Below are positions 50,051-50,236 of a stretch of DNA of 64,000 bases, piece by piece. This stretch comes from Escherichia coli. GTDB taxonomy: Bacteria; Pseudomonadota; Gammaproteobacteria; Enterobacterales; Enterobacteriaceae. Location: NCBI RefSeq assembly GCF_016903815.1, contig NZ_CP069973.1; one strand, 5' to 3'. Both the position numbers and the translations under genes were made by a program. Position 1 is the stretch's first letter. Each line of letters opens with the position of its first letter. Under the pieces are notes generated by a model. It was not told where the DNA came from. It ran no database searches and saw only the letters and a program-made list of their open reading frames with translations.

Positions 50051-50236
50051 TTACCGGAGTAAATCAGCGTGCCATGGAAAATTATGCGCAGCGCTTCTGC
50101 TGATTTGCGTACCTTCGCTGATGATAAGTCCTGCACTGGCGCGCTGCGCGTAATAGTCCGCCATCATGTCAGTCGTAACGTCACCCGCACGGGAACGTGT
50201 CATCGGTGGCATTACAATACGGTTTTTTAATGGCAA
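50051..50236 (-). pseudogene. Remnant of an Old-Yellow-Enzyme family NADH:flavin oxidoreductase (N-terminal about 45 codons only)
   Basis: ORF track 61 aa [46 protein letters not shown] matches the conserved OYE N-terminus (compare NemA LTRLRS...[23 protein letters not shown]), then diverges and stops; no continuation in other frames. Confidence 0.6.

Follow-up and report, generated by a model that had tools for sequence, protein, structure and literature searches.

The sequence at 50029..50266 on the minus strand of the window (the whole 64,000-nucleotide stretch of Escherichia coli DNA that was analysed) is very probably the non-functional remains of a gene for a class-I Old Yellow Enzyme (OYE), a NemA/SYE1-like alkene reductase. 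The gene was the last in an accessory cassette. Base-by-base comparison with an intact 365-codon orthologue, that of strain E69, identifies five lesions in the window copy, which survives as two pieces lying in different frames (Table 1). The feature, which RefSeq/PGAP has already flagged, is an ordinary pseudogene.

Results

Anatomy of the remnant

An earlier note on this DNA had described a 61-aa ORF that resembles the N-terminus of OYE/NemA proteins over about 45 residues, then diverges and terminates, and this description holds. The ORF is present, its first 47 residues (MPLKNR...GTQIS) match the family by Pfam, NCBIfam and tblastn, and the sequence beyond that block diverges and runs to a stop codon. 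The match to Pfam PF00724 (Oxidored_FMN) has an E-value of 7.2e-10 and a score of 39.1 bits, above the cut-off of 27 bits; of the 342 profile positions it spans only 11-63. On the NCBIfam NemA subfamily model, the ORF has an E-value of 8.5e-17. According to the note, neither of the other reverse frames carried the similarity on within the following 70 bp, and here our result differs: 50098..50029 continues the OYE in the +1 frame (EALRIIFHGTLIYSGKYTKARAE, codons 288-310). A tblastn search of the window with the intact E69 protein recovers both pieces, in two different frames (E=2e-27 for piece A and 4e-10 for piece B). At the other end, alignment to E69 carries the homology up to 50266, beyond the start of the ORF, and the remnant is larger on both sides than the 50051..50236 that the note had given as its extent.

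DNA identity to the E69 gene is 192/202 for piece A and 73/74 for piece B (50098..50025). The E69 cassette aligns at 97.5% identity with window 53975..50099, exactly 686 bp of E69 are then skipped, and the match resumes over 50098..50025. The note had proposed alignment with an intact OYE from a relative that carries a full cassette, and the E69 gene provides it, yielding the full list of lesions. Those that disable the gene are the loss of the start codon (ATG>ACG), a nonsense mutation at the second codon (TTA>TAA), the 686-bp internal deletion, which is frameshifting and has no microhomology at its junction (50099|50098), and a 3′ truncation, everything past gene nt 931 being gone. The 7 substitutions that separate the window copy from E69 are too few for a formal dN/dS estimate.

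Table 1. Features of the OYE remnant, its neighbours in the window, and the cargo segments of related alleles.
Feature	Position	Strand	Remarks
OYE pseudogene remnant, total	50029..50266	-	two pieces, A and B
Piece A	50099..50266	-	nt 1-174 of the intact alkene-reductase gene, its codons 1-58; aligned base by base with E69 L011:8232-8405; Pfam, NCBIfam and tblastn hits
Piece B	50029..50098	-	gene nt 861-931 (codons 288-310, EALRIIFHGTLIYSGKYTKARAE); +1 frame relative to piece A
Junction of 686-bp internal deletion	50098..50099	-	gene nt 175-860, codons 59-287 gone
CGAA microhomology at 3′ deletion junction	50029..50032	-	comparison with L004, L005, L032 and L033
61-aa ORF, TTG start	50051..50236	-	old OYE codons 10-58, after which the frame passes over the frameshifting junction and meets a stop by chance
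Mutated start ACG (was ATG)	50264-50266	-	
TAA (was TTA), codon 2	50261-50263	-	
6-bp in-frame deletion	between 50190 and 50191		GCGGGT repeat, RAGAG>RAG
nadR	48592..49824	+	RefSeq annotation
nadS pseudogene	49858..49994	+	frameshifted, without C-terminus; NadS profile positions 1-48 of 94; PGAP, NCBIfam NF041265
Stretch between the two pseudogenes	49995..50028		common to cargo-bearing alleles; includes 3′ arm of small hairpin
DUF1471 (YdgH/BhsA/McbA family), intact	50285..50497	-	Pfam PF07338; conserved upstream partner of OYE
SRPBCC, intact	50655..51071	-	
SDR, intact	51097..51894	-	
Aldo/keto reductase (AKR), intact	51914..52924	-	
LysR-family regulator, divergent	53057..53944	+	cassette ends just past its terminator hairpin, ~53975
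IS1397 (IS3 family)	54125..55473		between LysR gene and ettA; strain 7/2 annotation
ettA	55534..57201	-	RefSeq annotation
Islet absent from K-12, between nadR and ettA	49962..55508		distal nadS remnant, OYE remnant, cassette and IS1397; blastn of K-12 MG1655
Cargo segment	L004:4312-5861 (also L033)		winged-HTH and TauE/SafE
Cargo segment	L005:4312-5006		GNAT gene
Cargo segment	L032:3282-4257		DUF2846 gene

What is left of the coding capacity, codons 1-58 and 288-310 of 365 in different frames, is not the complete (beta/alpha)8 barrel of ~340-400 residues in one frame that a functional OYE has. The HGANGY motif (residues 183-188, with His183, Asn186 and Tyr188 in the intact orthologue) lies within deleted codons 59-287. 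In the OYE family these three residues are catalytic, as the His-x-x-His/Asn pair and the Tyr proton donor, and no catalytic His/Asn/Tyr set remains in the window copy because the motif belongs to the deleted part. Compared with class-I OYEs, the remnant retains the N-terminal block and lacks 229 internal codons (the catalytic His/Asn/Tyr included), the last 55 codons and the start codon. Such a copy cannot encode an enzyme.

The intact gene and its cassette

Relatives were drawn from a scan with the DUF1471 protein, one genome per species, which gave 18 loci onto which the cassette proteins were mapped. A full-length OYE directly follows DUF1471 in 12 of these (Citrobacter amalonaticus, several Kluyvera, Pseudocitrobacter, Yokenella, another Enterobacteriaceae genome and 'E. 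coli' E69), and the same adjacency is found in L002, L003 and L006-L009. Two of the 12, E69 (L011) and Yokenella regensburgei (L025), hold the entire cassette, in which a LysR gene is followed by AKR, SDR, SRPBCC, DUF1471 and OYE; in intact cassettes the last two genes are spaced 21 bp apart. Both cassettes have the gene order of the window and, over the shared ~3.9 kb, DNA identities to it of 97.5% (E69, CP089930, from an E. ruysiae/marmotae-like lineage) and 81.5% (Y. regensburgei). Unlike the window, both have an intact OYE, and in both it is the terminal gene, which agrees with the suggestion in the note that the remnant is the decayed last gene of the operon. The window copy, at 95-99% DNA identity, follows the same DUF1471 gene as the intact E69 gene does.

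E69 itself requires comment. Its flanking core genes uspA, pitA and yhiN are ~92.7% identical to those of all 5420 E. coli genomes, and its OYE protein cluster (365 aa) goes by 'alkene reductase' in the annotation of E. ruysiae and E. marmotae; on these two grounds E69, though labelled E. coli, is therefore assigned to a sister lineage. Among solved structures, Shewanella SYE1 (2GOU, E=2.8e-138) is closest to the E69 OYE, with NemA and PETN reductase at ~1e-100. The protein aligns end to end with the class-I enzymes E. coli NemA, Enterobacter PETN reductase and Shewanella oneidensis SYE1, and scores 396 bits against the NCBIfam NemA subfamily model, whose cut-off is 403. The gene in the window is a paralogue of chromosomal nemA, not nemA.

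An initial protein search, with the concatenated remnant as query, returned short or fragmentary proteins only. Contigs L002 and L003 and the Logan contigs L006-L009 carry OYE genes of intact length that are nevertheless frameshifted, at ~75-83% DNA identity. In several public assemblies the frameshift falls at the same place, after the GWKK codons (L003:8001-9101, L006:628-1724), and these look like homopolymer frameshifts.

The same ~4.8-kb cassette, with near-identical ends, occupies three chromosomal sites: between nadR and ettA in E. coli (window 50025-53975), next to yhiN/pitA/uspA in E69 (L011:4522-9334), and between ysaB/wecH and the yiaF-yiaG region in E. whittamii (L023:4523-8692). 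Homology between E69 and E. whittamii ends sharply, just outside the LysR terminator hairpin on one side and 5 bp past the OYE stop codon on the other, and no mobility gene was seen in the cassette across the three. The E. whittamii OYE (L023:8232-8692) has its start and stop intact and a 638-bp internal deletion (E69 nt 127-764); judging from this single genome, it appears to be a loss independent of that in E. coli. Downstream of its cassette E69 has a 1965-aa ORF (L011:10096-15993, minus strand), and a megablast of the 7 kb of E69 sequence in that direction against the 5426 complete E. coli genomes gives no match.

Distribution and decay in E. coli

The remnant is carried by 489 of 5426 complete RefSeq E. 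coli genomes (~9%). A search with the intact E69 gene matches 482 genomes, at one place each and none over 80% or more of its length; every row among the matches listed consists of two pieces. No intact gene was found among the 5426 genomes, and the deleted middle part, searched for with the close E69 gene, is absent from all of them. The codons that the note had thought might lie elsewhere in the genome are consequently nowhere in this set. A query made of the middle of the L003 gene, a distant one, matched only unrelated alkene-reductase paralogues in E. coli and was set aside.

Nine E. coli alleles, picked for diversity, were aligned. The ACG, the TAA and the 686-bp junction are common to 9/9. 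The 6-bp deletion and the CGAA deletion each occur in some alleles only and are not nested, a pattern that points to recurrent slippage at the GCGGGT tandem repeat or to recombination between alleles. Among these nine sequences the remnant has 7/7/10 segregating sites at the three codon positions (piece A 4/7/7, piece B 3/0/3), as against 0/0/11 in DUF1471, where all 11 are third positions, and 2/3/12 in SRPBCC; the density of such sites in the remnant is about twice that of these neighbours. Variants fall in conserved OYE motifs (PPMTR>PPTTR, SAGL>SAEL), and the ORF varies in sequence as well as in length, from 53 to 77 aa. Small as the sample of nine is, the pattern indicates relaxed constraint and reads as neutral decay beside constrained neighbours.

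RefSeq/PGAP names at the locus are 'hypothetical protein', 'alkene reductase' or 'oxidoreductase', newer records using alkene reductase. In NZ_CP023820 the same feature is annotated as a pseudogene at window 50072..50212 on the minus strand ('hypothetical protein', incomplete, missing C-terminus). PGAP marks piece A only and leaves piece B, the internal deletion and the mutated start unrecognised. A 2.1-kb contig labelled MAG: Collinsella sp. (L012, JAIJJM010000574.1) is 98.4% identical to window 49706-51849, OYE remnant and nadR end included, and almost certainly comes from E. coli and was mis-binned into an actinobacterial MAG.

Chromosomal context

Annotation was moved to window coordinates from RefSeq record NZ_CP023820 (strain 7/2), which is 100% identical to the window over 49700-50700, as are many other clinical isolates. 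The order of genes is serB, radA, nadR, nadS pseudogene, OYE remnant, DUF1471, SRPBCC, SDR, AKR, LysR, IS1397 and ettA, the nadS pseudogene and the OYE remnant being convergent. The match of K-12 MG1655 to the window breaks off at 49961 and resumes at 55509, with REP-like sequence in place of the islet. A scan of 49600-50800 for terminators and promoters, with Rfam and repeat searches, gave nothing meaningful.

Several observations concern the surroundings of this variable spot. IS1397 is absent from the other E. coli alleles read on the LysR-ettA side (L004, L005). The nadS gene is truncated in every E. coli allele read, and in K-12 REP-like sequence ends it after 38 codons; for this K-12 ORF a 2025 PIRT-Seq paper reports the first experimental evidence of expression (PMC12350097). 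The radA-nadR stretch (47777-49961) is 95.4% identical to K-12 and ettA, on the other flank, 98.2%. The radA-nadR divergence, unusual for E. coli core genes, suggests recombination tracts around the variable spot.

The 3′ junction and a variable cargo segment

The 3′ junction of the window is found in 440 of the 489 carrier genomes, and ~42 are split at that point. The four split genomes that we read (L004, L033, L005 and L032) retain the OYE to about nt 992, that is, 61 more bases (nt 932-992), followed by a variable segment and then by the sequence that the window has from 50028 downward. Because these longer alleles retain OYE nt 932-992 in a form homologous to the intact gene, the window-type 3′ end is the derived state. 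The CGAA tetranucleotides at the deletion lie at OYE nt 928-931 and in a small hairpin adjoining the nadS remnant.

At least three unrelated cargoes occupy the interval between the OYE and nadS remnants in a minority of E. coli genomes (Table 1). A ~11-nt inverted repeat (AAGCGGAAGTT ... AACTTCCGCTT) brackets the variable segment, and no transposase or integrase was seen in the segment in the alleles read. The repeats, judged by eye, do not fit the integron attC motifs GTTRRRY / RYYYAAC. The GNAT of L005 is not homologous to the GNAT found downstream of OYE in Citrobacter-like contigs, and 49995..50028 could not be read as further nadS by frameshift correction, the NadS profile match stopping by position 49.

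The note had also offered the feature as the scar of a deletion or recombination that defines the cassette boundary. The 3′ end of the remnant is indeed a deletion junction, at the CGAA microhomology (50029-50032), and in that sense the scar is real. It is not a simple truncation, the main lesion being the 686-bp internal deletion, nor does it mark the edge of the islet relative to K-12, which lies 67 bp further on at 49961/49962.

Discussion

On this reading the original gene stood last in a ~4.8-kb cassette of LysR, AKR, SDR, SRPBCC, DUF1471 and OYE genes, located in E. coli sensu stricto between nadR/nadS and ettA. It was inactivated by the lesions common to the E. coli carriers, as judged from the nine aligned alleles: loss of the start, a nonsense codon at position 2, and the frameshifting 686-bp deletion. 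The last ~106 bp of the gene were lost too. In the lineage of the window, as comparison of the alleles shows, an illegitimate-recombination deletion between two CGAA tetranucleotides removed 61 bp more of the OYE (nt 932-992) together with the variable segment, so that the remnant now abuts, tail-to-tail, sequence that flanks the nadS pseudogene. The 61-codon ORF is most likely an accidental by-product of these lesions with no functional product, and the remnant has probably survived just as an untranslated trailer behind the intact DUF1471 gene. The earlier note had named two outcomes that would count against an OYE origin, failure to find any intact homologue and failure of profile searches to recover the similarity; an intact homologue exists, and both Pfam and NCBIfam recover the match.

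It could be argued that the remnant has acquired a new role. One version holds that it is retained as a 3′ UTR, a terminator or a regulatory RNA serving DUF1471 or the convergent nadR/nadS transcription. With DUF1471 and OYE 21 bp apart in intact cassettes, and presumably co-transcribed, transcripts should enter the remnant, and the only minus-strand terminator-like hairpin lies past it, at 49840..49823. However, no terminator-like site was found inside the remnant, Rfam gives nothing above threshold (the only hit, a chance match to SNORD89, reaches 22.7 bits where the gathering score is 41), the remnant shows more nucleotide diversity than the flanking genes, and large indels distinguish the alleles at its 3′ end; we therefore hold a regulatory role to be improbable. 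Slimmer still is the prospect that the 61-aa ORF, or a 41-aa ORF in the +1 frame (50011..50136), is a newly functional small protein derived from the OYE N-terminus. The ORF is open in many genomes, appears as 'hypothetical protein' in several GenBank submissions (P0006, P0010, P0031) and lies 48 bp downstream of the intact, and presumably transcribed, DUF1471 gene. Yet it begins with TTG and no Shine-Dalgarno-like sequence is seen upstream of it, its length is unstable among alleles, its polymorphisms favour no codon position and alter conserved residues, and some 47 N-terminal residues of a ~365-residue TIM-barrel enzyme would not be expected to fold independently.

That the truncation might be an assembly or sequencing artefact, or the similarity a product of chance, deserves mention in view of the homopolymer-like frameshifts that this gene shows in some related public assemblies (L003, L006). 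The same structure is nevertheless found in hundreds of independent complete genomes, and the Pfam and tblastn E-values are far below chance; the genome census and tblastn exclude this reading, to which we attach a negligible probability. The remnant is best regarded as what its lesions indicate, a decayed OYE gene.

A more speculative proposal is that loss of the OYE paralogue in Escherichia was selected rather than merely tolerated, and that the cargo segment with its inverted repeats reflects an undescribed exchange mechanism. Selected loss is put forward because E. coli (deletion of nt 175-860) and E. whittamii (nt 127-764) each lost the OYE independently, with the five other cassette genes intact and constrained; taken as a whole, we consider the proposal unlikely, if somewhat less so than the new roles weighed above.

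Beyond annotation hygiene the importance of the finding is slight: the islet is accessory and the pseudogene routine. Only two points are mildly unusual, namely that two Escherichia species lost the gene independently and that a minority of genomes have a cargo-swapping segment beside the remnant. The present analysis adds the exact anatomy of the remnant, with its two pieces and five lesions, an ancestor-like intact cassette in sister lineages of Escherichia, and the order of the decay events. These results could help to correct records that place a 53-77-aa 'hypothetical protein' at this position, and they illustrate on a small scale how a gene decays step by step at a variable spot of the chromosome.
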